Positions 34,101 through 52,615 of a stretch of DNA of 64,000 nt are shown here, one piece after another. The stretch lies in the NCBI GenBank assembly GCA_046563655.1, contig CM102289.1, positions 5,332,001 to 5,396,000 on the forward strand, written 5' to 3'. Under the pieces are notes generated by a model, which worked only from the letters and a program-made list of their open reading frames with translations, was not told where the DNA came from and searched no databases. Position 1 is the first letter of the stretch. Each line of letters begins with the position of its first letter. The translations under genes were made by a program, and so were the position numbers. This DNA comes from Yuukianura sp. NJ FZ-2021 (lineage: Eukaryota).

Positions 34101-37100
34101 AAAAAAAACTCAAGCTTTGAATGTACATTGTATTTTTTATTCTTTTTGACCAGGAGCCACCTATGACCCCACATTTGACCTTCCTCTGCACAACGTCACG
34201 GCAAAACAAGGTAACTTTCACTTTTTTAAGAATCGGAGGAATGCGCAGCCGCTAAGGGAAGTGGCAATCTGATAAACAGAAAGCCATTTAACCCATTCAA
34301 TTTCCGTTCAATACTCATTCATTCTCCTAAATCTTAATAGGTACAGAGGTTTCCTTTACGTGCGTCGTCAATCATCTAGGAGACTTTAAGGTAAGGTTTC
34401 CTGGAATGGTACTTATTATGCCTTGCCACCGGTGGCAAGTCGGTGGTAAGCAAATTTGCTCCGTTTGGTACTCATGAAACCGGGAGCAAGTAGGATGGCA
34501 AGAGTATAGCAACTCTTGCCATCCTCCTTCTCTTTCTCCATTGAAACCTTTCTCCTAGCAGGAGATTTGGTACTTATGAAGAGCTTTGCTCCTCAGTAGC
34601 ATCGCAAATTCCGTGATATCTTTGCGGCTAGTCGAGACTAGCCGCAAAGTAGCGATTTGAACGATTATTAAAGATTATGATCCAAATACAGGCACAATTA
34701 AATCTACTAACGTATTCAAAATCATCCTAACCTCTCATACTCATATTATAAGCATATATTAAGCATGAAATCGTCATTCTTTAAACTGATTCTACTACTA
34801 CTAATGGAATCATATGACACACATATGGCTTCCTTTGAAAGATGGAAGTTAATGGCGTTTTAGGGTTCTTTACATAAGAACCCATTTAAATCACCCCGTT
34901 TTGATTAAAGTTTTACATTATGACACTTGCCATAGCCAATTCTACTTTATACTTGTCCTAAAATGTCACAGTAGGTGCAAAGGCATAAGAATTCATTAGT
35001 ATTTGTGTATTTATAAGTAATACGAATAATTGAAATGCTTTAAAAAGATAATTATCATGTGCACTTATTGTTCCAAAGAATGTGCCAACGAGTCTCAACC
35101 TTGTTGTCACACCCAGATTTTGAATTTGGTGAGGAGGGAAGGCACTCCACTCCTCCTCCCGTGTTAGTTTGGGGAAAACTCCCTCAACTTTGCCACCGAG
35201 AGAGAAAGTGTTTCGAGAGTACCAAATTCTCAAAGTCGCAGAGGAGTGGCGCAAGCTAATTTGCGATCGCAGATTTGTCACCGCTAATGATAGTTGTCGA
35301 TCCTGAACTTCAAAATTTTGAAAAAAAAAAAACTAGATTTATCCCAAAATTTAATTTTAGTTATGTTTGTAAAATGAAGCTGAAGTAGACAGGGGGTCCA
35401 TTGAGAAAGTGTTTTGTGTTTGGAGTGAAAGTCTGAATGAAATGGTTGTGAGTGAGAAGATGTCGTTTGGGGGATTTCCATTGTCCTTGCCTGTAGACAA
35501 ACTTCATTTTCCCAACCATTAAGCCAAGGTTCCCCCTGTCCCACCCGATTAGTCCCACCCTCTGTCTTCCATTTCTAATCCCACTAATACAACCATTCCG
35601 TAACCATGGATACGATGATTATACTCCTTTCCCGTCTTAACAACCACCAGAAACCATTACAATTATCCAGCTTCTTGCAAGCCACGAAGCGCAATTGCCA
35701 CATTGATTTGTATTCCACTACATTGGGCTTAAATTCATTCCAAAATGTACAGTATGATTCAAAAATTTATGCAATCGCTTTCTCTGTTGCCGTCCTCAAA
35801 ACTTAGATTAACGCAAAACGCCAAAACAAAACTTTTTTGAATTCTATCGAAAATTTGGAATTATTATGCAGAAAAAGTTGGCTCATAAAAATATTACTGA
35901 CGCTGGAGGCGAAACGGTAGCTAATAGGGCATGAAGCGGCTTGGGTCAAAACGGAAACAGGCAAGTACAGAGTAGAATGCGGATTCTAATGGAAAATCAA
36001 TGCACGGAAATCCTCTTTCCTGATCAAATTTAGCGCCCAGAGGAAGTGGGCAATAAAAATTGAATTAAAATAGCCATACAGTGCTTTGGTGGAACGAAAG
36101 AACAAAGGAAAGAGACTCGTGGGACTGGTTAGGTTAGTTTTAGGTTTAATAGGTTTATTAGGTTAATTAAACAGGCATTCTGTTCATGTCGTGACAAATG
36201 TATGTAAATTGGTCCCAAATCTAGAAGCTTTTTAAAGCTGGCTTGTCTACCCACTTAAAAAGGCTAATCAAAAAGACACTTTTCTCCCGCGAGTTTTTGA
36301 AAGTGAAAGCAGACGCTTCCGTGGTTTGTTCAAACAGGTTCTGTTCTTGTGTTCAAACAGGTGGCATGGATCAAGTCGGATGATAAGGTCATTCTGGCCT
36401 ACCACACAAACAAAGTGTCACACAATCCCAGGTACAATGTTTTTGCACATGCGCATGAGCATTTTTACTCATACTTAAGCATTTATGCTCATCATGTCCC
36501 GTTTTTCAGGTATCATGTAACACACAACGGGCACAATACGTGGACTCTGATTATCAAAAATGTTCAGAAAAGCGACAGTGGAGAGTTCATGTGTCAAATC
36601 AACACAAACCCCATGACCATGCAGGTAAAGTTTTGGCGGAATTTTCAAAAAGACAGGGTAAATTTGAAGTTTTTTGAATCTTTTTAAGGTCGGATGGTTA
36701 GAAGTTGTCGTACCAGCGGATATCATCGACGAGGAGACATCGGGCGACGTTGTCGTTGGGGAGGGACACTCTGCACTGCTACAATGCAAGGCAACGGGCT
36801 CCCCGCCTCCAAAAGTCCGCTGGAAGCGCCAAGACGGGCAACCGCTTCCTTTGAGCCGCGAACTTTTGAATCCGGGTGAAAAAGGTAACTTTTTTTTTTA
36901 AACAAAACTAAATTTTTTCATCCCTTGCCTATTGCGTGTGCTGGGGCTGTTGAACGCGGTTTGTGTGTTACTCAACTTGTAAACAAAATTTGAAATTTCC
37001 CTCTTTTGTAAATAGCCCCCAAACTCCCCTCATCTTTAAACTTCCGCTTCCGTCTCAATTTCCCCCCAGTAATTAAAAACTTTCGTAATTTTTCAGTTTC

Positions 37101-40100
37101 TAACTTGTTGTATGCGGAGCAGCTTTATTCAAAAAACCCTCTGTATGTTTATATTCAAGAAGCTTTTTTTCCTCCCTCTTTACTCAAGGATTAAATAAAC
37201 AACAGGCAGAAAGCTCGAGTTTATGAATTGGTTCCGCACAAAATTTCCCGCCCTCCAGGGAACGTTTTCATCTTTTCCCAAAATTCAAAATTCCCACAAA
37301 TAACCTCAAGGTATACATACAACGAACGCATTACGTTACGTACGGGCACTACTTTAAGTTTGACTTAAACCGTAGTTTCTTCATCCTCTTAATTTCCGTT
37401 GGGGTTGGCGGCACTTTTCAAAAATCTTTTCAAATCATCTTTGCCTGGCTTCTCTTTTTGAATGAATGGTGGTGAAAGTTATAATTCCCGCAAGGAGAGA
37501 GGTGAAAGTGGAAATCCGCTGAACTTTCCCCTGCTAAAAGTGTGATTCATTTCCTCTCCTTTTCAATTCTTGCCTCATTACACTCTTAGCAGCATTAAGT
37601 CAAACTAATCTGGCTCTTTTGCTGGGGAAAGTAAAGTCGTTTCCTACCAAAAAGCCCGTCTTTTGAGAAACCTTTTAAATTTAGAAGAGCGCGTTTTTTG
37701 AAAAGACTTTTCTCCGTCTCTCTCGTCACCTTTTATGAGTGAAAAGTGGAGAAAGTTAGTGGTGCAAAGACTTATTTTTCAAAATATTTTATAATTTGAC
37801 TTATGATTTTCACCACTTAAGGGCGTTGACAAGTAAAACTTAGAAAACTTAAATGAATGGGGTCCATGAAAGCAAAATTTTGAAATAAAAGAAAAAGTTT
37901 AAAAGGTGTTAGAAAAAAGTGGAGGTTCCAAAAGTCGAAAAACTTTTTCTGAAAACTTGTTTTCGCACGCCAAAATTTAAAAAAGGCTTCGCTTGAAGCG
38001 ATTTTTTGCTTTGGGGGAAGAATCGAGAAAAAGTAGAGCTTTTTATAAACGGTATTTACTGAAAATTTTTAAAAGTAAAAAAAACATTTAGAAAATGTTT
38101 CTACTTTTAAAAAAGTAAATAACTTTTCGTTTCGTGTATTGGAATAGATTGGTTAGTGAGATTTTTGCACGTTTCTTCCTCCGAAGTCCAATGTTTAATT
38201 TCCGTTGGAACGAACGTGCTTAGAAAGTACAAAAATAATTCTTTCCATTTTCTCACTTTCTCCCGCTTTTTCAAAAAAAGGTGAACAAAAATGTATCGCT
38301 TTTTGTTGTGAGTTTTTTTTTTCAGTTTGAAATACAGTGCTGTCATTGCCTTCTTGTTCAATTCCAACCTTTAAGATTCTATTTTATTAACTGCTTGTAG
38401 AAAATAGATAACTCTATTCACTATATTATTTGTGTCGGATATTCAGAAATTGAAAAAAAAAACTTTCTTTTTTAAATTAAAGAGCGGTATTTTTAAATTT
38501 CAAAAAATGTTGTCAGAGGAAGGAAATTTACTTTCCCTCAAACCCAAATGCACTCAAACTGTTCAACTGGAAATTCCTGGGAGTGATGGCGGGAAAAGTG
38601 GTTCCTTTCCAAAAAGTACCAAAATATGAAAAGTCTTAGCGGCCAGCTTTCAAAAAGCTTCCTCATCTTAAAGTGAAAGCAATGAAAGGAGAGAGTGCAT
38701 TTTTGGGACACAGGCGTTCCACTCCAGCAGAACTTTTCAAAAAAGGAAACCAAAAAGTTACGTGCTTTTAGCATACTTTAAGCTTTTTTCCAGAAAGAGC
38801 TTCAAAATTTTAAAAAAAGTTAAAGTACGAAAATAATTTTTAATTGACTTTTGATTTTTTCCCTTCTATACTAACTCCGGTAGCAGTTTCGCTCTGTTTT
38901 CTGCTGAGGTGTGCTCAGATTTCCGTTGCGTTCTGAGGAATAGTGTGACTGCTGTTGATCTCTGGATGACCTTAATGAAAAAGTGCGGAAATGAGTTTGA
39001 CCTTTCATAAAATCCAATCCTTAGGTCATGTTTCATATCGCTCATAAAAATTGTCCAAGGTTTAACTCCTGTGTGTCCAACCGAAACAACAGAAAGGCAC
39101 AAGGCCTTCAGAACTTGGTTTTCTCCTGCTTGTCCTGTCCTCGCTTTCTCTTCATCTCACCGATCCGAAAATGTCAGAGACGGGCACTGCTAAGAAAAGA
39201 AATCTCGTGAGAAATGCAGGAGAAAATTAATCTCAGCTTCAATTTATCCTTGTCAGCAACCGAATCTAGCTCCACTTTCTACTTTAGTTTTGAACCCGCC
39301 TTTCCCTCTCTCCTGGATTCAATTCTTCAGAGTCTTAGTTTATGAACAGACTCCAAATTCCGAGAAATTGTAAACCGTGCTTCGCAAGTCTCTCATTCTG
39401 AAAAAATAAGGTTATACTTGTACAGTGACCTTTCGGAACGCTTCTATGAGAAAAATAAGCTAATTTTTTTTAAATTCTCACCTCATGCCCAAGATTTAGC
39501 CTGTAAATTGTGAGGCTCCGTCTATAATGTCAGGAGTACTGAAAGCGACGCAGCGTGCTGACACTGTTGCCTCTCGTTGAAATGCATTCCTTTGCAATTT
39601 TTCCCGCCAAGAGAAATGAGCCTGACTGAAGGAAAGACTTCAATTCGTGACACAACGTGACTTGGGTTCGATTCCTGGAGCCGTTGAAGAAGGTTCATTA
39701 TTATTGATTGTCTGTCTATTCTTCCTGTTGGATTTTGGCAGAAGAGGAATCCGTGACAAACTCCTTAGCAAAAATCACAAAATACGACACCTACACGGAG
39801 ACATAAATTTTGAACGAATGACCAATCCTACCTTTTTTTTAAATATACATAAGATTTCATTTTTAGAAATTTTTTGAAATCTCCGAAATACGTGGTTGTT
39901 CACCGTTTGTACTGCCTGCCTGCAAAATAAATGAGATTTTGCGTTTAAGAGTTTCTACGTGTGCAAGATGCGTTTCTATTCTTAACTTATTCAATTCATC
40001 TTCCGGAAAAAACGCGCCAGCAAATGAAAAAAAGTGAAAGGTGAAATATGCATTTTATTTTGTATTCATTGGCTCTCAAAAGGACTTCCTCTTCCTCTGC

Positions 40101-43100
40101 TGGCTTTCACTAATAAGCTCATCCTCTGGATTTAACAAAACTTGAATTCCTCTACTACTTGAATTTAGAAAAGTTTTTTAGTTAAAAGTTTTTTTTTTCT
40201 TAACAGTTGTGGAATGGGAAGGAGAGACGCTTCCGCTTCGACCACTTACCAAATCTGACAACGGAGCATTCCTTTGCATTGCTTCGAACAATATTCCACC
40301 GTTGGTGAGCAAGAGGGTCATGGTCTACGTCCAATGTAAGTCACTCACATGCTGAAAAATACAGAGCATTTTTTGAAAAACTCAAAATTGGGGGAAAAGT
40401 TTTAACGTGAAAAGTCCACATACCTACTTTTAAAAAGTCGAGAAGTACCGCAGATTCCGTCAATTTTGATTTTGATTTTTTAAAATTCGCTCTGTGCATT
40501 GATCCCACTGCTAAATATTGCTTTACCGTCATTAATCCAAGCCTAAGGAAGATGTCAAAGTATCAATTAATAACCTTAGCGTTGGAGCTGAGCCAGATAC
40601 AACACAGATAGGATTGAATGGAGGGAGACTTTGAAATTTCTTTCCTGTCGTGAAAATTTTGAAACTTTTTAATGAATCTTGAAAATTTCCTAAGAAAAGG
40701 TTCGACAAGGATGATTCAATTAAAATTTCCCGGGTGAAAGTAGCTGTTGAACATCCTCCTTTTCCTGGTTCATCCCTTGTGTAAAGTCATTCAGAAGAGT
40801 GAAGAGGCGGAGATTGATTTTCCCTGAAGATTTTCAATAGAAGTGTGAGAAGATCAATTTAAGATGTAGCGTTCCAGATTAGACTTTTTGACACCTTCCA
40901 GGCGGATCCCTGGATATCCAAAAGGAGAGTTAGTGTGAAAGTTCTAATAAGAATTATTTCCGCCTCTTCCCATTAGCTTTCGGATCCTCCCGCCCATTAA
41001 AAGTCTCCCGTCTTAACTTTCTCCTTTCACTTTTTTCTCCAGTTAAACCATTAATCAAAGTGTCGAATCAACTGGTTGCTACTCCAGCGGAAATGAATGT
41101 CACACTTTTCTGTGACGTCGAGTCCGTTCCCAAGCCCTTCATTTCATGGACGACCAAAGAAGGTAAGTTCCAAAACAAAATGAAATATTTTTACCAGCTT
41201 TCATTTTCTTTGTATTTTTTTTAGCAAAACTTTTTGGTCACAATCCTTCTGTTTGTGTTGTTTGAAATTTTTGACCACAAGTAAAGAAAGGTTTATGAGG
41301 AAAACTGTCGGAAGCAGTTGGGTCGTAAACTGTTGAGAAAAGTATAGAAATTGCGGCGGCCAAGTTTGAACCATCAATTAAATTACAAGTTGTTTTACAT
41401 GCAGTGAAGTGGAAGATAGGAGGGCTACTTTTACTCTTGACGTGAAACCTTCATGTTCACCACGTTCACGTCGTTTGGCGGTGAAAGTGAACGTGAAAAG
41501 CGAAAGTTTGCAACTTTCACCCCGATCGAAAACGAGCCGAAAGGGAGAAAGTCAGACTTCATCCCCTGCCATTACACCTGGATTTCAGAAATTTCCTATA
41601 AAAATTTTGGCAATACGGAAAACTTTCATTTTGAGAATTCATGGAACAAAATTTTTTGAAAAATTTGTCATTAAGTACAAATAACATTCCTGTTCCGGAT
41701 GGATTGTTCAAAACTTGGAAAAATTCCTGAAAATATTTTGAATCGGTGCGATATTAACTTTTCGAAATATTTCTCGCTTATTCCAAATTTGTTGCGTGGG
41801 TGTATTGAAGTTGCGGAAATTGGTTGAGAATGCCCTTAACAACGGAAGAATTCTTGTGACTTTGAGATTGTGTCGAAGTGTACCTTGAAGATGATACTTT
41901 GTGCCAAAGTAATAACAAGGGAGGATAACGAGGAATCAAAAGTCTGTGACTCCATCACTTTCACTTCTTCCGAAGTCAATCCGAAAAAGTGGAGAAAATA
42001 AGAAAGTGATATCAATTTGACTCCAATTTCTTTTGGCGCCAAGATCTCAAGGGTAGGGCAAGAGACGAGTTTAGGAAATTGAAAAAAAACCGGGGTGGGA
42101 GAGAACACGGGCGGGGAATTTGATGAATCAAAGAAAATGTTCAACCAAAGAAACATGGAAAGAAAAATCACTCAATTTCTTCAACGCAAAAGAAGAATTC
42201 TGTTTCAGTTCTTGACACGAACCTGTTCGTAAAGAGGTCAAAGGTCACCTTGGTCGTACAAAGCAAATGTGGATTCTTAATTTTTACAAAAACATTTATT
42301 TAGAACAAGTTATGCAAAATTTCTGAATTCTTTCTCTCAATTTCCGAGTTAAATAAAATTAACCTAATTAATTTCAAAAAGAATAACCTAGCAACTAGAG
42401 CGGGTATTTTCAAAATTTGAAATTCTTGGAGCGACGCAGGTGGTTTTCCGCTTTTCTCCGTTTTCTTCGCGCCTTTTCACAAAGTGAAAACAATGAAATC
42501 TTAATTTCCTCATTTTATTCTCTCACCCTCTTCAAACTTTCCCCCGCCTGCTTTCCTCACTTCATACTTTATTTTCTAACGTAAGAGCTACAAAATGTTG
42601 CTAATTTCTCATAAAAAATCTGTTTAGTCAAAATCTTGAATTTTTAAAATCTAACTGCAGGCCTAACTTTTTTTAAAATTTTAAAGTTAAGAGAAAGTCA
42701 AGGTGTAAGGCTCCGCTTTCCCAAAATTTTCTTTCATCTCGATGTTATTTTCTCTGCGAGAAATGAATGGGGCGCGTGCCTTTGTTCAGGAATTTCGCCT
42801 CTCCTTGGATAATGGATAAATAAAAGTCGTTTTAAATTCTCAATGAGTAGTTTACACACGGTGCGGCGCGGCGCTTTTAAACTTCAAACGCTCCACGGTC
42901 ATTGGTGCTTAGCACAGCAGTCAACGTCTTTATAAAATTCAACGGTTTTCTGCCACTACCACTATACTAAATCCCTACTGGGTTACAATGGGTTCAGGCG
43001 AAGTGACTTTCTTTAATGAGAATTGTCTCAAATGGCCCCGCTTTCTCTTTCTTCTAGGTTGAAAAACGATTCAAAAACTTGGTAGTGCGCACCATATGCT

Positions 43101-44109
43101 TTACAGTCCAAATCACCCAGCAGTTTTGAAAATGCTAACTTTCTCTTTCAGTTTAAGAAAAGAGGAAAATAAATGTTATATTTGTTCAGGTCAATTGATC
43201 ATGCCCACGGAGTCCAAGTACTTGCTGAGCATGGAGACGCTGAATGACTACACTGTTAGAGCCAAACTTACCATTCTTCGACTCCATCCCGACGATTTTA
43301 CAGACTACAACTGTTCAGCACGAAACACACTCGGAGAAGATGGCGGAATTATTAAGCTCCAGCGTAAGTTTTCTCCCTTTGACTTTCTCGGACTATCCAA
43401 AACACGTAGAGATCAGAGGAGGCCTTTGAATTCCTTCAAAGAATTCATAACCTTTGTTCTACAGCGTCTCAAAAAAGAGCGCGTGGTTTTAATTAAAATG
43501 GATACAGTCCTTGTCCAGCCAAGGAGTTCTCGTCTGCGTGCCGTTTCTGGAAGCTGCAAAAAGAAAAGAGAAACTTTTCCAGAGTTTGACCACGGAGAAA
43601 GTCTTGATTAATCAAATTATTTTTGCTTGTTTTCTCCCCTGTACATTCTAGGAATCCCACCCCCTACCATAAAGACCACCACGACCCCAGCTACTCATCA
43701 TCAACTCAAGCATCAATCCAGGGAACACGACAGACAAGATGGGGTCAAAGGTCACGGGAAAGGTCACAGGGGAAAGGGGGGACGGGGTCGAGGTCACGGT
43801 AGAGGTCACCAGGGTCAGCATGAAGACCTGTACTACGACCATGAACTGGAGCAAGGAATGACGACAATCACTCCCATGGTGAACGGAGGTCAAGAATTGG
43901 GTGGTGCTCAGCAAGGGGTGGACAGGGGTGGGGGTCAAGGTCAAGAGCCACGCGGGGCTACAACCCCCTCCACACCTTGGGGAAGAAACAACTACTGGGG
44001 AAATAAAGTGGAGAAGAACAGTGGTGCTGGAAGTAGTGCTAATGTCAGATCAATGATCAAGGTCATGTTGACCTTGACCTCCACCTTTTACATGTTCAAA
44101 ATCATGTGA
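28176..44109 (+). CDS. Lachesin/DIP (IgLON-like) three-Ig-domain cell-surface protein, likely GPI-anchored (10 coding exons: 28176-28272, 34154-34210, 34341-34390, 36361-36431, 36510-36624, 36689-36884, 40207-40335, 41043-41162, 43190-43363, 43652-44109)
   Basis: Signal-peptide exon. Ig1: [17 protein letters not shown]...[25 protein letters not shown]. Ig2: [17 protein letters not shown]...[15 protein letters not shown]. Ig3: [15 protein letters not shown]...[15 protein letters not shown]. Then a low-complexity stalk and a hydrophobic C-terminus. All phases fit. A probable non-coding first exon ends at the CAG|GTAAG donor at 25447. Confidence 0.9.
34407..34649. repeat. Cluster of perfect palindromes/hairpins in intron 3 of the Ig gene
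   Basis: 18-bp palindrome at 34422-34439, 12-bp palindrome at 34449-34460, 14-bp stem with 6-nt loop at 34492-34525, and 14-bp stem with 2-nt loop at 34620-34649. TGGTACT(T/C)AT is repeated at 34407, 34466 and 34568. Confidence 0.85.
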
Positions 44110-44578
44110 CATAATATTTAAATGGCGGATTTTCTAGCTTTGAGTTATACCTTCTTCAAAAGTTTTTAGTCCTAGTTTTGACTTTTTAGAAAAGTTTTTT
44201 TTACTTTTGTTTAAAACAAGCCCTTATTGTTCGATTTTGCTCAAAACAGAATCCTACACTCAAAACTTGAATAGTTTTTTATTTATACAATCTCAAAAAA
44301 AAAATGTGGACAGGTCAGTTTAGAATTTATGGTAAACGTACGGTTTTCAAAAAAACGAAAAAAAAACAGCCCTCACATATCTGTAATTTCTTTTTAAGGA
44401 AGTGGTACGTTAGTTACTGGACAGCGAATTGGGGTAGTTTAGAAGATCAATTTTGACACAACATTGGATTTGTAATTACTCAATTACCCTTACCGTTGTA
44501 ATTACAATTTAAATAAACTGGAATTCCATTAACTTTTAGATAGAAGTAATTTATAACTAACATAACTTTCAAAATCTG

Positions 44579-45934
44579 CTAAACTTCAAATTCAGACATT
44601 TCTTTCGGTTTCTCTGTCCAACCAATCAGTAGCTCCCTCTTTATCTTCGTCCAATTCTTGACGTAGCTTGAATTCAATAATTTTGCGTCACAGTATTTTC
44701 CAGTTTCTGGAAATTCTAAGCCACAGAGTCGTGCAACTTCTTGGAACTTTTGAAATAACCGCCTCCGGCAAATGTCAACTTCTGCTGCGTGCGTTCCAAG
44801 CTGTCTTTTGGTGACACCTTGCTTGTAGCCATTGACACTCACTTGACCTCGCTTAGGGCCATGTCGCATGAAGTCTTCCACTGACCAGATAATACTTCCT
44901 GGAGCTGGATTTCCTCCTGGCGTACATCCTTCTTTCTTCTTGAACACGTTTAGTTGGCTTTGACCTATAGCTGGACAACGGTAGTTTTCAAAATCTGGAA
45001 TTTGATCTGGCTTGACCTCGAACCGCTCAAATACTGCTCTCTCCAATGCCTGCTTGTTGAATGGAACTTGACCTCCGATGGTAATGGACGCGAAACGCAC
45101 AGGGCTGGGAACGAGATGGCCCAAAAGTGCACCCTGTAATCCCAGCATGTTCCATTTGGCCAGCTTGTCACTGCAAGACATTGAGAGGGTAGGATCACCT
45201 TTCCCGGGCTTTACTCGACATCTTCCTGCTGCTTGAATGTTCTCATAAGTTTTAGCACCCGGAAAAAGTTTGGCTCCCGTTCTGTTACCACCAACTCCGT
45301 CAATGATAAAAGTAGTGCGTGATTCTGAAGAGTCTTCAGCTTCACCAATTTCGTCTGGTTCTGGAAGATTCAACTTTTGTTTCTTACAGGATGGCTCTTG
45401 ATCGGATAAAGTTCCTTCATCCTCTTCTGTTGCATCGGTGGAACTAAAAATACAAGAGTCGCCACATGGAAGTTGACTAATGAACAAATGAAAAGTAATT
45501 CCAGGTACCAGAACAAAAGTCATCAAGGAATCATTGTTGACCGGAGAAAAGTTTTTCATAAAAATTGAATCTGGAGAAGACTTGCAAGAAATAATGATTT
45601 GATCGTAGAGGTAGTTCAGCAATACACGTCTGGCTAAAACTTCGGCATGGGAGTCACTCAGCTTGTCACCTTTTGGACTCAACTCGGTGGCTCCCAGGCA
45701 CTTTGTGCCAGTACATATGGAAATAAGTTTTAGTGGAGGCGGCTCATTGCTGTTACACGGAGTTGTAGAGGCTTGTGCTTGAATAACGGCTGCCAAAGTT
45801 GTCCATTCTTTACCGTCTTCTAGAGGCTTCCCTTTCTTGGGCAAAACGTTATGGTAGTTAGAAAAAACGAGATTAGCAATTGAGTCATGAAGTTTTTGGT
45901 TTTGAGCAGAGACACTCTCACTTTCAGTCGTCAT
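44579..45934 (-). CDS. ADAT1: tRNA-specific adenosine deaminase 1 (A37 editing of tRNA-Ala); intronless
   Basis: N-terminal LPKKGKP..KEWTTLAAVI, CTGTKCLG, zinc/catalytic DSHAEVLARR, PCGD and SMSCSDKLAKWNMLGLQGALL. No dsRNA-binding domains, so ADAT1 rather than ADAR. The first ATG is at 45934; the ORF track's 45940 start is a TTG. Confidence 0.93.
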   Translation of the reverse strand: MTTESESVSAQNQKLHDSIANLVFSNYHNVLPKKGKPLEDGKEWTTLAAVIQAQASTTPCNSNEPPPLKLISICTGTKCLGATELSPKGDKLSDSHAEVLARRVLLNYLYDQIIISCKSSPDSIFMKNFSPVNNDSLMTFVLVPGITFHLFISQLPCGDSCIFSSTDATEEDEGTLSDQEPSCKKQKLNLPEPDEIGEAEDSSESRTTFIIDGVGGNRTGAKLFPGAKTYENIQAAGRCRVKPGKGDPTLSMSCSDKLAKWNMLGLQGALLGHLVPSPVRFASITIGGQVPFNKQALERAVFERFEVKPDQIPDFENYRCPAIGQSQLNVFKKKEGCTPGGNPAPGSIIWSVEDFMRHGPKRGQVSVNGYKQGVTKRQLGTHAAEVDICRRRLFQKFQEVARLCGLEFPETGKYCDAKLLNSSYVKNWTKIKRELLIGWTEKPKEMSEFEV

Positions 45935-47375
45935 TGTCAAACACTTTCTTCTTTCCTTGAAATGTAGTTAGCGCCACAGCTTGTCGTTTCTTGGCTTCCC
46001 AAGATGGGTGAAGTTTTTCCGCAGGTTGAACTGGAACGTCTGAAAAAAATAGTTGTTACGAATAAATTCATTCAAATAAGCAGGTTCCGATACAAATAAG
46101 TTCCCGCAGACCAACCTGGTTTTGGCCTTGATCCAACTGGAAATTGATTGGCACCAGACGAGCGAGAGTATTGTGATTTGTTGAAGTTTTTGTCTTTCCA
46201 ATTATCGGTACTTTTCGATCTTTTATCAAATCGTGGTGGCTTTGAAACAAGTTTCCCTTTACGGAATATAGGTTTTGATTCAACGGATGGATCCTTGGGA
46301 CGTCTCGCCTTCTCGACAGTTTTGGTCTCCTTGGCGGCTACAGGTTCGTCAACACCACCGAGAAAAAATGAACTCCTTGGTATTCGCTTTGGTGGAGCTG
46401 GTACTTCGCCTTCGTCTGTAGTTGTGCCGGCTTTGGGTTGATCAGCTGTTGTAGTACTTTCGTGGAGTTTTCGTTTCTTTGATTCTTTCGGTTCAGCCTC
46501 TTTATCCAAATCTGACAAATCTTTTAGAAGTTTTATGGTAAGAGCTCCTTCTACTTTGTTAATGGGAACTGGAGCTTTGGGAGTCTTCTTCGCTTTGGTA
46601 GATTTGGATAGTAGTGGGCCCGGTTTTACAGTTTCGGCTTCTGGATCAACTGTGTCAGAGTCCGGTAATTTTCCTTTCTTTGCTTCCGCTTTTAATTTCT
46701 CTTTCTTTTCTAGTTTCTTTGCAGTCAATTTTTGCTTGGCTTTGCTCTTTTCCAAAAGGACAGGAATTTGAAGAGCCCAGTGTGGATTTTGATTATGATA
46801 TTGTTTCACCGCCGACCGTATAGAAGGATGGTGACTGAGACGAGCTAAGGCTCTTGTTTTGCTTGTGATTTCTGGATTCTTAACGTGTTCCTCGTAGCTA
46901 AGTTTGTCTTGAAGCGCGAATATGGAAACCTCGTCCCTTCTCAGCCCCTACAATAAGATATTCATCCAACTTAAACTATAAAATCCAACATTATTTCATA
47001 TTGAGAAAAAGCTTTAAGATCTACCTTTAAAATGTTTATGTCTTCTACCAATCGGTCAGCCTTACGTTGTGCTTTCTGCACTTCACTCTCTTCTCCCTTA
47101 CGTTGACGTAGCTTGGCAATTTCTTTTGTCAATTTGTGGATTACCCGAACTCTTGATTGTTGAACCCATTTACGCATTGACACGATCTAAAAGTTTGCAA
47201 ATTATGTATTGAAATGCTACCATATTATTAACCCAATTCAGTGTCAAGAAACTTATGTAGTTAGAATTCCAGATAGCAAAAACTAACTCACATGATTATT
47301 CAGCTCTTCTTTTTTAGTCAGTTTATGTTGCTGAGAAGGATGCTTTGATTTAGAATCATGATGTTCCTGTTCCAT
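45924..47375 (-). CDS. SRFBP1: Serum response factor-binding protein 1 / BUD22-domain ribosome biogenesis factor (4 exons: 47375-47292, 47186-47025, 46947-46116, 46039-45924)
   Basis: N-terminal ELNNH|IVSMRKWVQQSRVRVIHKLTKEIAKLR, a lysine-rich middle, and C-terminal LHPSWEAKKRQAVALTTFQGKKKVFDNDD* (BUD22-type LHPSW...FQGKK..FD). Introns are in phase. Confidence 0.9.
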
Positions 47376-47852
47376 TACAATTCAAAATCAAACTAAATTT
47401 AGCCTCATAAACGATGACGTGAATGAGAATCAATTAAGTTACTCACTAATCGATTAGAAATTTCCGAACACAAACTTTTTGTTGTTACGCAGTTTACAGA
47501 AAGCAGCTGATAAAAACAAGCGTGTTGGAGTCCCAATGTAATTTTCGCGGGGCTATTTCTTGCATCCCGAATTTCAGTTTTAAATAGCGTTATGGGTTAA
47601 TTTGTTTCGAACAATAACAAAACTAATCAACAACATCAGTTAATTAATTAACTTACTCATTTATTCAACATTGGTCAAATTATTATACAATGAAGGTTAG
47701 CGGGTAACTTTGTTTTAAAATATATTTCTGAGTAACTACTATCCTTCACATAATTTTTTATACTTTTCCTTTATGTTTTAGTATACATAGACTTTGTTTT
47801 GTAAGTTTTCGCCAAAAGGTCAAGTTGAAGCTGCATAGCAATAGATTACAGC

Positions 47853-47981
47853 GGAAGCACGCCATTAGTTCAAATTTGAATTGGTTCAAGAGCTAAAATG
47901 GTATTTTAGGTTAGGTTATTGAACTAATTTTTTGAACCATTTGGTTTTGAACCAATTCAATTGAACCAATGGCATGAAACC
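47853..47981. mobile_element. 129-bp MITE with imperfect TIRs and 8-bp target-site duplication, in the galactokinase 3' region
   Basis: Left end GGAAGCACGCCATTAGTTCAAATTTGAATTGGTTCAA versus the reverse complement of the right end, GGTTTCATGCCATTGGTTCAATTGAATTGGTTCAA. Flanked by the direct repeat ATTACAGC at 47845-47852 and 47982-47989. Internal TTAGGTTAGGTTA. Confidence 0.8.
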
Positions 47982-48015
47982 ATTACAGCGCAGCGTTGAG
48001 GAAGTATAGAAGGTT

Positions 48016-49572
48016 CTAGAAAATATAGCTGGTTGCTTTCTTGCGATACTTTTCGTTAATTGCTTCTATCACTGTGTTTGCTTCAGCCGTTTGAACCTAG
48101 TTGAATTACAAGGAAAGTTATTAGACAAACAATTCTTGACCTTACATCAAACTCTGTTGTAGAAAACTTACAAGAACCACAATGCAGCCACCGAATCCTC
48201 CACCAGTCATGCGCGAACCAAGTACACCTTTTGCTTGCATTGTAATATCAACCAATTCGTCCAATTCTGGACAGGACACTTCGTACAAGTCACGAAGCGA
48301 CACATGACTTTGATACATCAGTCGACCGACGGCCTCCAAGTCATTGTCCACTAGCGCTTGGGCAGCTTTCTCACAACGCTCGATTTCCGTTACGACATGC
48401 AGAGCACGTTGGTAGGTCCGATCACCCAACTCGTTCCGTTTTTCTACAAACAAAACTTTAATAGTTCCTGCATGTTCTTTTCTTTCATCAATGTAATAAT
48501 GTATTTGGAATGTGGATTTAACTTACTGCGCAGGTCGGAAAGTGTCGCATCCCGTAGGCTTTTAACATTCAGGATTTTGGCAGCCGCTGAACAATCTTCT
48601 CTCCGTTTGGCATATTCCCCCGCCGCAAGCTCATGTTTCACGTTAGAGTTGACGACAATAAAAGACGTCGATGATGTTCCAGAACTTTTGAGGGGTATGA
48701 CCTTAGTGTCCAGTGACCTGCAGTCGATGAGGAGAGCCGAACTTTCTTCACTTGCGCTACAGATCAGTTGGTCCATGATCCCGCAGGGTACGCCGGCGAA
48801 TGTGTGTTCCGCTTTTTGACACAGAAGAGCCTTTTCATTCAACCTGAATCAGAAAAAGAACAAACTCATTAAACATTTCTAAACCAAACAGAGTCATGTT
48901 TGTACTGTCGCTTGTCTCACTTCAGTTTTGTTGTGGTCAAATGCTCCAGAAAGTTACATGTGGCCACTTCAAGAGAAGCACTGCTAGACAGTCCACCTCC
49001 AAGTGGAACTGTCGTAAGAACGCAAGCGTCAAATCCCGGAACAGTTCCTAAATCCAAAGAACAACGTGAACAAAGATTTATCCAATCTTTGCTAGTATGC
49101 AAATTATCCAATACGAGACAGAATTTGTTTTCTGTGAGGTGATACCTGGGAAATGTTCAATAACTCCTTTGACATAGTTGGCCCACTTTGGAGTTCCGGG
49201 TGACAACCGTTGCTTTTCGGTAGGAACTTTGAATTCAATTTTCTTTGGCTCATCAACGTCTGCGGCCAGCGTCATTAGCGTAATCTTGTCACTTCCATTC
49301 TTCCGTCCCACAACAACTGTCCATAGTGGAATTGCCTGAAACAGAAACAAAAACTTAGTAATTCAAAAAACCTCCGCGTTATGTTGAAATAATTTTTAAC
49401 TTTGAAAAATTACCATAGGTAAAACGAAACCATCGTTGTAGTCCGTATGTTCTCCAATGATATTAACACGACCAGTAGCAGCTCCAACCAATTCTGGTTC
49501 ACCACCTCCGAACTCTTGTACAAAAGCCGTTTTTGCTTTTGATACTAAATCCTTCAAAGGTATTATTTCCAT
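48016..49572 (-). CDS. GALK1: Galactokinase (GHMP kinase; 6 exons: 49572-49414, 49335-49146, 49047-48921, 48843-48527, 48443-48172, 48096-48016)
   Basis: Galactokinase signature [22 protein letters not shown], plus [50 protein letters not shown] and [12 protein letters not shown]. Confidence 0.96.
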
Positions 49573-50205
49573 GCTTTCTTGCTTTATTGAGACTTTTCTA
49601 TTTAAAAAAAAACTTGCCTTCTCCGGTAGCCTAAAATTCTATTCAATTTGGCTTGCTGCCAGCTCACAAAAACTTCCAAATGACAGTTATTGACAATTGA
49701 ACATCCAGAAAATGAGACCACAAACTACCCAGACACCATAAACGGCTTAAATTAGTCTAACAAACGGAACACACAAAACTCATTATCGTCCTAGTCAAAG
49801 TACTAGTACAAAAATAATTTCCCTTGTCCCTCGCCTCCCATGATTCCTGCCTCAATGTATTACAAAATCTATGCTAACATTTTAAGGCAAAAAAAAAAAT
49901 TCACTTCCACATCCCAACCCACTTGACATAGACAGATCTGCTTCAGAATTGGAAATGACCTCTGATAATGGCAAATCTAAAGTAAATCTATCTGTCCTCT
50001 CTTCTGACCGAGCCTCGTCAAAACTGTATAGAGAGGATTAATTTTTAATTGAATTATAAGCATTTAAATTGAATCAGGGTCAATCATAAAAATAATAAGC
50101 TGGGATTAACATAATAAACTTAGCCTTCCTGCTATGTACTATACTACTAATAATGTCATAACGTATCCAACGTATTTAGATTAGAATGGCATTAGAATGT
50201 TAGCG

Positions 50206-52615
50206 TCACCTTAAGCTTACTACAACAGTCTGCTTAGCATTTTCGGATGGCTCCAACTTATTTGATGATACGCCGAGGGCGGACACATCCGCCACCGAGG
50301 GAGGAGCCACCATGTCCGGCGCTTCGGAAGCGGTGAGAATCATTTCCAGAGAACCCTGTCATAAAATAGTTTAGGTTAAATAGATAAATAATTAAATATG
50401 ACTAATTTAATTTAAAATGATATGTGTGGCTGTTAAGTACCTTGAGTTCCATAAGATCAGTCATGTAAGAGACCTCACTCACAACTTGTTCAGTTAACTG
50501 AATAAACAAATCATCCACGACCTTGTCTTCCCCGATTTTACACGCATACATGTCTGAAAACAAATAACAATAAAAACGGATCTAATGAGTAGTAACAAAG
50601 ATGATATATTCTTACCAACGAGAACATGCGATACTTGCAAAAGAACACGCATAAACCTTGGTCGTCGAATGTGGCGAATCAAGAACTTGATAATTCTGAT
50701 CAAATGTTTGCCCTTCCTCCCAGCAAGTGCCTGCTTCAATCCATCACGCCTAAAAATGACTTTGATTTTCAATTTTCATGAAAACAAAATATGAAACAGA
50801 GACTGGCATTTTACTTACCTAATTAGTTCTTGAAACAATGCTACTGTGGTGCCAGGAAAACGGTAACAAAAAATATCACTCATGACACAATCCAGAGCCT
50901 TGGAATAGCGGAATTTACGGAGGTAATGGTCGTATTTCAGGTCCCCTGGAAAAAACAGAGTGGTGTCAGTCTTTGTCTTAGCAGAGGAACAGCGAACAGG
51001 TGATCCACTATACAATTCTTAACACAATTCTCACTTATTGCTCCCTCTTCCCGGATTCCAGCATCAGTGACAACAAAATCCGTAAATGTTTTTGCTTTTC
51101 TGCGTTTTACAACAGCGGCAGCAGCTTCCAGCTCCTTCACTGCTTTATCTTCTTCTTCCATTCTTGAAATTGCAATTATTCCGTCACTCATCCCAACTGC
51201 AACAGTTTTGTCACCGGGCTAAAAAGTGAAAAAAAAAACGATGTCGCCGTCGAGGTTTCAATGTGAGATATGAATGGACCCAAGTTTAAACAATTAGTAT
51301 TACTGCAATTGCTAAGCTGAGAATTGGCGAAGAGTAGTCGATTGTTTGAATGACTTCGAAGTTTGTCATTTCATAAATTTTGACATGCCTATCCAATGAG
51401 GCCGAAGCAAGTCGTTTATAATTTGAGGCAAATTGGAGTGATGTGATAGTCTTGTGATGTTGCGATATCTTTGAAAGTAACCTTCCACCAGCAAGGCAAT
51501 CCCAAATGCGAATTTCAGTACCACCTAAAAAGTAGCAACAACAACACAGATTACCAAGCATGTTACGTACTGGTTACTTAGGTACATCGACTCACTCGAA
51601 CGGAAGTAAATGCTTACCTGCAGTGAACAACAGTGAACCCGTTGGAGATGGCAAAATGGCTTCGACGGGCGAACCATGGTCGATGTTGAACAGTTCCCGG
51701 TGTTCTCGTTTGTCCCAAACACGAACAGTATGGTCGTAAGATCCGGAGAAGATGAGGTTAGGATTAGAATCTAGAGTGGCACCAGATCGAACGTAATCCT
51801 AAACAAAGACAGGTACGTTTTACGCATGACAAACATCGAAACACAGTTGAGTACTTACCGAGTGACCTTCAAAACGATGAATTAGAACTTCGCTAGGCAT
51901 GTCCCATTGGCCAACTATTTTGTCATCAGAAAAGCTAACAATTTGATTATCGGTTGGAAGAAACTGGCAGCGATGAACAGCCCTATGGAGTGTAAAAGAA
52001 CGTTAAACTGAAGTTGAGGACCAGAACCTCTGTCAAAGTCGTTTCATTAGTAAACTTTCGCTTACCGTTGATGTCCCTTGAAGACTCGAAGTAAATTTTT
52101 GGAAGAGACATCAAACAATTTAAGCGAAGCTTCTTCACTGCCGGCCAACAATAATCTGCCGTCCTTCCGAAATACACCTCCATAAGCAGCTTCTCTAAAT
52201 CGATTGTAATTTTTGTGTATCATCCTCGTAATTGGATGATACAGTTGTATCTATAAGTATAAAATACAACGTTATTCTATTCCTTTACGTCAGTTAACTT
52301 CACAAACAGAACTTACACGAGAAGAACATGTCACGGCCATAAAATGCGGTTCAACAGGACTTATGTCGATGTTATCAATTAAGTTTACTTCTTTTAATAG
52401 AATCGGTGCCTACAAACATATCAATAACAATTCGAAATTCACTTTATGCTCAGTGAATCACATATTTAGTTTATGTTATAATCGCAACGTGCAATCGTAT
52501 TGGAGAAAATATTTTAGCATGTACTTACGCTTAATTTCCTCCAGTACAACACATCAGCTGAAAGTGGTGCTGATTTCCTACTGAAAGGAGCCACGTATGT
52601 TTTCTTGAAGGACAT
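50206..52615 (-). CDS. UTP15: U3 snoRNA-associated protein 15 (WD40, SSU processome; 11 exons: 52615-52529, 52409-52317, 52250-52066, 51982-51859, 51798-51618, 51524-51304, 51218-51035, 50945-50819, 50749-50616, 50553-50441, 50355-50206)
   Basis: WD repeats FRKDGRLLLAG, GHSDYVRSG, SGSYDHTVRVWD, HHKTITSL and SASLDRHVKIY. UTP15 C-terminal motifs YDHYLRKFRYSKALD and ELIRRDGLKQALAGR. Phases are consistent. Confidence 0.93.

Follow-up and report, generated by a model that had tools for sequence, protein, structure and literature searches.

In a 64,000-nucleotide stretch of the Yuukianura sp. NJ FZ-2021 genome (assembly GCA_046563655.1, contig CM102289.1, positions 5,332,001 to 5,396,000 of the forward strand; hereafter the window, with positions counted from its first letter), two neighbouring minus-strand genes, SRFBP1 and ADAT1, share 11 nucleotides (nt) of coding sequence, so that the start codon of ADAT1 lies inside the end of SRFBP1 in a different reading frame. 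The overlap recurs in a distant relative, SRFBP1 is depleted of ATG triplets in all frames upstream of the ADAT1 start, and the choice among its synonymous codons is biased against creating ATG. Both open reading frames (ORFs) are likely to reside on one dicistronic mRNA, and we propose that ADAT1 would be reached by leaky scanning, to which reinitiation may contribute, a reading that we put at a probability of about one half. We infer both that the ATG depletion exists for scanning ribosomes and how the task is split between leaky scanning and reinitiation.

The upstream gene was modelled with four minus-strand exons and three introns, all of the GT-AG type (3/3). Its spliced coding sequence (CDS) of 1,194 nt is open throughout, comprises 397 codons and carries the ADAT1 ATG at offset 1,183. 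Exon 1 (47292-47375) begins with the ATG at 47375-47373 and holds 28 codons, ending in phase 0 before the donor GTGAGT. Exon 2 (47025-47186; 54 codons, phase 0) contains a second in-frame Met at 47177, which is conserved, as well as an out-of-frame ATG at 47169, the last one before a long ATG-free stretch. Exon 3 (46116-46947) has 832 nt and not a single ATG in any frame. Exon 4 (45924-46039) has 116 nt and encodes ...AEKLHPSWEAKKRQAVALTTFQGKKKVFDNDD followed by the stop codon. On its own, exon 4 matched the C-terminal end of the Pfam family BUD22 (PF09073) with an E-value of 4e-8 and 33.4 bits, which is under the 37-bit cut-off, and exon 3 alone had no Pfam match. The exon-3 profile matched two proteins that carry PF09073, P0123 (E = 5e-47) and P0125 (E = 7e-34), and the exon-3 homologues with this domain share the C-terminal motif ...HPSWEAKKRQ...F.GKK..FDD. 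From the exon-4 match together with these homologues we take the upstream gene to be a probable SRFBP1/BUD22.

At the junction, the minus strand of SRFBP1 ends with ...GTG TTT GAC AAT GAC GAC TGA (stop codon 45926-45924), and ADAT1 begins with ATG ACG ACT GAA in the +1 frame relative to SRFBP1 (ATG 45934-45932). Re-reading the letters thus bore out the 11-nt overlap (ATGACGACTGA, 45924-45934) that the earlier note had described. The ADAT1 CDS (44579-45934) runs uninterrupted from this ATG for 451 codons plus stop and has no intron. Its frame is closed on the 5' side by a TAA at 45968-45970, the stop-to-stop ORF beginning at 45967, and the next Met is residue 126, C-terminal to H96-A97-E98. The earlier claim that 45934 is the sole start able to give an intact enzyme therefore stands, because every other in-frame Met lies beyond the HAE motif. 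The product matched the Pfam family A_deamin (PF02137) over the full profile (1-329 of 329; E = 4e-74; 250.5 bits against a cut-off of 27). The residues H96-A97-E98, P156-C157-G158-D159 and S253-C254-S255-D256-K257 are invariant in all eight aligned springtail-like sequences, that of the window included; we take these to be the HAE, PCGD and SCSDK motifs that hold the catalytic and zinc-binding residues of ADAT1. The best matches were an unnamed protein (P0001, 50% identity) and proteins of Folsomia candida (43%), Orchesella dallaii (43%) and Allacma fusca (40%), with Daphnia and spider proteins next; by these matches the source of the window is a springtail-like hexapod. Among the best 120 matches, those with a name were mostly called tRNA-specific adenosine deaminase 1, the remainder bearing generic names, and a Pfam search of the window protein found no double-stranded-RNA-binding domain. 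Judged by these sequence features, the gene is the orthologue of ADAT1 rather than of ADAR or ADAD.

We found the same arrangement in L001, a metagenome contig of 2,827 nt that carries SRFBP1 followed by ADAT1 with an identical CAATGACGACTGA junction, the 11-nt overlap lying at 1758-1768. L001 was the one locus returned by a single metagenome scan for relatives at the DNA level; scans of genome contigs and viral contigs with the ADAT1 alignment found no relative. The SRFBP1 exons of L001 measure 72, 162, 820 and 116 nt, so that exons 2 and 4 have the same lengths as in the window, the phases are the same, and the CDS ends with ...TTC AAC AAT GAC GAC TGA. Exon 4 of the window aligns with that of L001 at high identity, the alignment that contains it being 80% identical as a whole. 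ADAT1 of L001 begins at the same ATG with an intact N-terminal part, and its frame opens at 1725, which places an upstream stop at the position equivalent to the TAA of the window. The two loci are far apart: the proteins are 52% (SRFBP1) and 60% (ADAT1) identical, and where a residue is shared, its codon is also the same in only 47-51% of cases. The overlap is thus conserved in a distant relative, as a comparison with related sequences proposed in the earlier note could show. An ATG at this place is by itself cheap, because the acidic SRFBP1 tail (..F-D/N-N-D-D-stop) easily yields one in the +1 frame (AAT-G, GAT-G); a conserved start of a whole enzyme there is not. Since both the junction string and the 116-nt last exon recur in an independently sampled contig, the junction is more than a product of chance.

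The comparison also disposed of two candidate artefacts. ADAT1 of L001 contains a 69-nt GT-AG intron (2521-2589) after ...KWQMLG, where ADAT1 of the window is continuous, so one of the two lineages has lost or gained this intron. A recent retrocopy origin of the intronless window gene was ruled out by the presence of this intron next to the same junction. An assembly deletion at the junction, raised in the earlier note as an outcome that would undo its proposal, was likewise ruled out by the identical junction in the independent contig.

Protein sequences of two other relatives are compatible with the overlap, which itself is seen in the DNA of the window and of L001. Upstream of its 'MTT', P0001 reads like a +1-frame translation of the SRFBP1 tail, and with phmmer its residues 36-47 aligned with residues 360-370 of P0004. 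In the latter, a 790-residue protein from the annotation of Orchesella dallaii, SRFBP1 passes into ADAT1 by a frame change within the final SRFBP1 exon and by way of the same '...MTT' stretch; the protein is most likely a merged gene model to which the tight junction gave rise. The SRFBP1 portion fell short of Pfam BUD22 at an E-value of 0.01. When the best 150 of the 4,040 representatives that match P0004 were compared, no other protein spanned both halves, and ten long candidates (P0004 included) matched A_deamin only in Pfam, BUD22 being found in 0 of 10.

We then turned to the sequence that a scanning ribosome would have to cross. Spliced SRFBP1 of the window holds four ATGs in any frame before that of ADAT1, at offsets 0, 16, 93 and 101, and none in the 1,079 nt directly before it. 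Codon shuffles contained 10.8±2.3 ATGs, with 0.2% of 2,000 shuffles reaching four or fewer, and a first-order Markov model predicted 9.5. L001 has three ATGs (offsets 0, 81 and 370) against 7.9±2.0 in codon shuffles, 1.0% of 5,000 reaching three or fewer, and a single one in 1,075 nt against 10.0 expected under the Markov model. Ranked by depletion among the 64 trinucleotides, ATG comes first in SRFBP1 of the window and third in that of L001. In exon 3, codon shuffles gave 6.4±2.0 ATGs where the sequence has 0 (P<=0.001). The window holds 13 ORFs of 150 codons or more, and of these exon 3 alone was depleted (P = 0.15-0.99 for the other 12); ADAT1 has 22 ATGs where 20.6 are expected. No ATG-free run on either strand of the window is longer than the one at 46072-46964 on the minus strand, which measures 893 nt; the next longest has 471 nt. 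As a stand-alone statistic the raw run was dropped, because other trinucleotides show similar relative gaps. In the exon-3 homologues P0121-P0125, the only internal Met stem from ORF-caller starts or from read-through of an intron.

The choice of synonymous codons points in the same direction. Codons for Asn, Asp, His and Tyr (NAY) create an ATG if they end in T and are followed by a codon starting with G. In this position 1 of 8 NAY codons ends in T in the window and 1 of 11 in L001, compared with 23 of 38 and 15 of 25, respectively, before other codons (one-sided Fisher test, P = 0.017 and P = 0.005). The same test revealed no bias in ADAT1 (17/31 versus 36/72, P = 0.75). As the simplest reading, we would attribute the avoidance to small ribosomal subunits (40S) that must cross SRFBP1 while scanning. 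Coding by itself gives no cause to shun out-of-frame ATGs, and ADAT1 does not shun them, whereas leaders crossed by scanning 40S subunits do.

According to this reading, a single mRNA would be transcribed from the SRFBP1 promoter and would probably end at the AATAAA at 44283, carrying the 397-codon SRFBP1 ORF and the 451-codon ADAT1 ORF that overlaps its last 11 nt. Most ribosomes would use the SRFBP1 AUG. A minority of 40S subunits would slip past the 5'-proximal AUGs (leaky scanning), or scan on once a 13-codon ORF at 47359 has been translated, and would then cross about 1.1 kb of SRFBP1 coding sequence that selection may have kept free of AUG in all frames. The first AUG they met would be that of ADAT1, which has an A at position -3 in both window and L001 (acaAUGa). 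The route should lead through exons 2/3 and 4 with intron 3 spliced out, because intron 3 holds ATGs in both species. Folding of the junction gave no excess of structure over shuffled sequences (z = +1.47 and -0.12), and neither a stable RNA structure nor an IRES-like (internal ribosome entry site) fold was found there by this comparison of folding energies; an unstructured junction suits scanning.

The 5' end of the mRNA offers features through which subunits might pass. The conserved second SRFBP1 Met has a U at -3 in both species, and the SRFBP1 AUG of L001 has C at -3 and G at +4. The out-of-frame 13-codon ORF of the window (47359-47318, minus strand) starts 16 nt after the SRFBP1 AUG with an A at -3. 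L001 has a 26-codon ORF (244-324) whose ATG, if it is part of the leader, lies 31 nt ahead of the SRFBP1 AUG, which the ORF spans. Both short ORFs end 31-35 nt before the conserved second in-frame Met, and such an ORF may act as a gate for reinitiation. One can extend this, tentatively and at well under even odds, to an mRNA that would be obligately dicistronic across deep springtail divergences, with a 397-codon ORF kept AUG-free for more than 1 kb and a tuned fraction of 40S subunits reaching ADAT1, the short ORF possibly serving as a gate that responds to ternary complex in the manner of GCN4 or ATF4.

Several observations weigh against the proposal that ADAT1 is reached by scanning along a shared mRNA. 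The SRFBP1 AUG of the window, with G at both -3 and +4, is not weak by Kozak's rule, and scanning subunits must still pass two to four AUGs, the conserved in-frame Met among them. The statistics are moderate, and the codon-shuffle null is over-dispersed: AAA, TTA, CCC and GCC reach similar z-scores there. By the ratio of maximal to mean gap, the 893-nt run ranks fourth of the 64 trinucleotides on its strand. Pooling both species for the NAY test gives 2/19 versus 38/63 (P = 1.1e-4), a value that is somewhat optimistic because window and L001 share ancestry and the results are not fully independent. SRFBP1 in P0004 has two internal in-frame Met in the equivalent of exon 3 in addition to the conserved one, so the depletion is not universal among springtails. 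L001 has an AATAAA at 2133, inside the ADAT1 CDS and 375 nt into it. A separate ADAT1 mRNA that starts within SRFBP1 and has a long leader predicts the ATG depletion equally well. Finally, Drosophila Adat1 does not figure among the polycistronic genes of FlyBase: the names Adat, Adat1 and CG16889 had no occurrence in six searched supplementary files, one file being unsearchable.

The separate mRNA deserves the closest look. The locus could consist of two overlapping transcription units, the ADAT1 start site lying inside SRFBP1 and the SRFBP1 mRNAs ending in or after ADAT1; we consider this unlikely, yet an alternative to be taken seriously. Overlap of a 3' untranslated region with the 5' part of the next gene is common in arthropods and not flagged by FlyBase. 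Polyadenylation signals are relevant here. On the minus strand between 47700 and 43800 there are two copies of AATAAA, at 47665 and 44283, and one of ATTAAA, at 46696; none of them lies between 45924 and 44579. The first AATAAA 3' of the SRFBP1 stop (44278-44283) lies about 300 nt past the ADAT1 stop and is a candidate signal shared by both ORFs. A pattern scan agreed with the earlier reading by eye that AATAAA is missing between the SRFBP1 stop and the end of ADAT1, the first being that at 44283. As an argument for a shared mRNA this absence proved weak and was dropped, since it is not conserved: the AATAAA at 2133 of L001 could end a monocistronic SRFBP1 mRNA. ADAT1 of the window also contains weak hexamer variants (AGTAAA at 45215; ACTAAA at 45734 and 44954).

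Where such an internal start would lie matters for the ATG depletion. One option is a site near the ATG, in exon 4 or intron 3, which would leave both the 1-kb depletion and the bias in codon choice unexplained; a start in intron 3 would moreover give a leader that contains ATGs, namely the one at 46071 in the window and the five of intron 3 in L001. The other is a site near the start of exon 3, giving a spliced, ATG-free leader of about 900 nt, and a start between 46964 and 46116 would indeed select against ATG in exon 3. The depletion in the window extends back into exon 2, to offset 104, which argues against this placement, though the stretch is too short to decide. The ATG at 46071 in intron 3 of the window opens a 44-codon ORF (46071-45937, minus strand), whose TGA (45939-45937) stands 2 nt before the ADAT1 ATG. 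This ORF would exist only in transcripts that retain intron 3 or start within it.

For the earlier proposal of a dicistronic, translationally coupled unit, the outcome is divided. That ADAT1 is made from RNA carrying SRFBP1 sequence is supported indirectly, by the conserved overlap and the avoidance of ATG, whereas coupling between stop and start received no specific support. In a coupled arrangement, a 40S subunit held on the mRNA after termination at the UGA (45926-45924) would start again 8 nt upstream, at the ADAT1 AUG, as happens in caliciviruses and influenza B virus. The AUG lies within a few nt of the stop, as in the viral cases, and the pentamer UGGGA, the core of motif 1 of the viral termination upstream ribosome-binding site (TURBS), occurs in both species at the same distance of 71 nt upstream of the SRFBP1 stop (46001-45997 in the window, 1691-1695 in L001), inside the 40-90 nt zone of that motif. 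It sits in the block AEKLHPSWEAKKRQA, where the same codon is used at 11 of 14 degenerate positions, compared with 47-51% overall. The presence of UGGGA is not evidence, because the Trp-Glu codons conserved in the C-terminal motif of BUD22 impose it, and the 11/14 is nominal (P of about 0.02) among 15 blocks, another of which reaches 9/12. Extra constraint at the nucleotide level in exon 4 as a whole (19/28 same codons against the 47-51% background) was likewise set aside as unconvincing among 15 blocks. No stable structure presents UGGGA, as the folding z-scores given above indicate, and coupling does not predict avoidance of ATG 1 kb upstream. Reinitiation after a long ORF is reportedly exceptional without a dedicated element, to go by the title of work by Poyry and co-workers from 2007. 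We regard termination-reinitiation as the source of ADAT1 as improbable.

In alternative cis-splicing, SRFBP1 exon 1 or 2 would be joined, from a shared promoter, to the AG at 45957-45956, and the product would be ADAT1 with a short SRFBP1-derived N-terminal extension, or its mRNA would have a short leader ORF; the layout would be similar to loci with a common 5' exon such as insect Su(var)3-9/eIF2-gamma. The CTAAC followed by several AGs that had been noticed just before the ATG is present: CTAAC (45971-45967) and TACATTTCAAG before a G form a weak look-alike of a 3' splice site (45956-45971), and AGs follow at 45957-56, 45952-51, 45949-48 and 45945-44. The first AG falls on a codon boundary of the ADAT1 frame (AG/G), so that a splice from exon 1 or 2, both of phase 0, would preserve the frame, and the equivalent in L001, CTGAC...TTCCAAG/G, is in the same register. 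P0004 joins SRFBP1 to the ADAT1 frame within the last SRFBP1 exon, and many genes share 5' exons according to FlyBase. The acceptor, however, lacks a real pyrimidine tract and carries an A at -3, the conserved Leu-Thr-x-Phe-Gln-Gly codons account for the motifs, and P0004 is probably a merged gene prediction. Exon 3 would become intronic, which leaves its ATG depletion unexplained. We therefore give this alternative little credence.

Three further explanations are, even jointly, very improbable. A +1 frameshift fusion would make use of the fact that ADAT1 is in the +1 frame, where skipping the U of UGA continues into ADAT1. We found neither a known shift site nor a stimulator, nor local structure, the ADAT1 frame is closed 33 nt upstream in both window and L001, and a frameshift has no need of ATG depletion. 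Spliced-leader (SL) trans-splicing, which would free a monocistronic ADAT1 mRNA, is present in some crustaceans (copepods and amphipods) but stated to be absent from insects, and it is not known from springtails. Any acceptor 5' of the ATG would truncate SRFBP1 ahead of its stop, and no pyrimidine tract precedes the AGs at 45957-45944. The third, an assembly error, has been dealt with above through the junction of L001.

Four co-directional minus-strand genes lie within about 7 kb (44579-51573): a UTP15-like WD40 gene (UTP15_C at 50497-50775, WD40 at 51289-51573), a GHMP-kinase/galactokinase-like gene (48145-48522 and upstream), SRFBP1 and ADAT1. We take two of these genes, UTP15 and SRFBP1/BUD22, to encode factors of small-subunit ribosome biogenesis. 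The boundary between the kinase gene and SRFBP1 looks conventional, because the AATAAA at 47665 stands between them. On the plus strand, a gene with immunoglobulin-like domains extends over approximately 36300-44100 (ig/I-set 36307-36684, Ig_3 40934-21), and its 3' end converges on that of ADAT1 near 44100-44300.

If SRFBP1 and ADAT1 do share an mRNA, the locus would be a clean natural case in an animal of scanning over more than 1 kb of protein-coding sequence, with an evolutionary footprint that can be read in synonymous codons picked so as not to make AUG. Springtails would then join Drosophila among the arthropods with dicistronic genes, and the dosages of a tRNA-modifying enzyme and a ribosome-assembly factor would be linked; were the short ORF to act as a gate, inosine-37 tRNA editing would be tied to ribosome production. 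The test of NAY codons before G could serve as a cheap screen, independent of RNA, for scanning-dependent downstream cistrons in unannotated genomes. The tight junction would also explain why gene predictors merge both genes, as in the 790-residue Orchesella model.

Literature searches found no paper linking ADAT1 with SRFBP1 and, by title and abstract, none on nuclear dicistronic or polycistronic genes in springtails, the papers met being mostly on mitochondrial genomes or unrelated topics and one on Su(var)3-9/eIF2-gamma. Overlapping cellular coding sequences, which the earlier note had called rare, are less so in arthropods: for D. melanogaster, FlyBase counts 159 pairs that are dicistronic and 18 gene pairs whose coding regions overlap in different frames; in the latter, 26 of the 36 genes are on polycistronic transcripts and most overlaps are shorter than 40 nt. 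CG33649/DNApol-gamma35 ('OVERLAP 4 nt') resembles SRFBP1/ADAT1 in its same-strand overlap of stop and start in different frames, and there the mRNA is dicistronic. For most of these overlapping pairs FlyBase gives the mechanism as unknown, an IRES being suggested for many.

Other systems share single traits with the junction. Viral sites place TURBS motif 1 at 40-90 nt upstream, use overlaps such as AUGucUGA in rabbit haemorrhagic disease virus and, in respiratory syncytial virus, restart up to 29 nt upstream of the stop (PMC3542737). Like calicivirus VP2 and influenza B BM2, the ADAT1 AUG overlaps or abuts the stop and has UGGGA 40-90 nt upstream. The viral sites need a structured TURBS, which presents UGGGA to helix 26 of the 18S rRNA, and no AUG-free upstream ORF, whereas at SRFBP1/ADAT1 we detected depletion of ATG and no structure. 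Operons of the nematode type with SL trans-splicing also consist of co-directional, co-transcribed genes, and their pre-mRNA is cut between the cistrons into monocistronic mRNAs; at SRFBP1/ADAT1 both cistrons cannot be freed from one precursor because they overlap. In bicistronic genes of green algae the start context of ORF 1 is weak, start codons are under-represented ahead of ORF 2 and the ORFs lie close together; leaky scanning was demonstrated there by mutagenesis (PMC11892635). These genes belong to a different kingdom, and here ORF 1 encodes a full-length protein of 397 codons that requires a scan of more than 1 kb.

The closest precedents are stoned (stnA/stnB) and CG9960/Snapin of Drosophila, where an AUG-deficient first cistron with an off-consensus start context allows the second cistron to be translated by leaky scanning, according to PMC11892635 (work of Wall et al., 2005 on both loci, as cited in PMC11892635 and PMC4528330). 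These too are arthropod loci that encode unrelated or loosely related proteins on one mRNA, and the AUG-poor first cistron is the sequence signature that they have in common with SRFBP1/ADAT1. They differ in having gaps of 52 nt and 18 nt from stop to start and no overlap, and in that their shared transcripts and mechanism were shown by experiment, while for SRFBP1/ADAT1 both are proposed from the sequence. Ours is another gene pair in another lineage, the springtails. While AUG-poor dicistronic genes of arthropods have been described before, the gene pair and the lineage are new, and the length of the ATG-depleted first cistron and its conservation set this locus apart.

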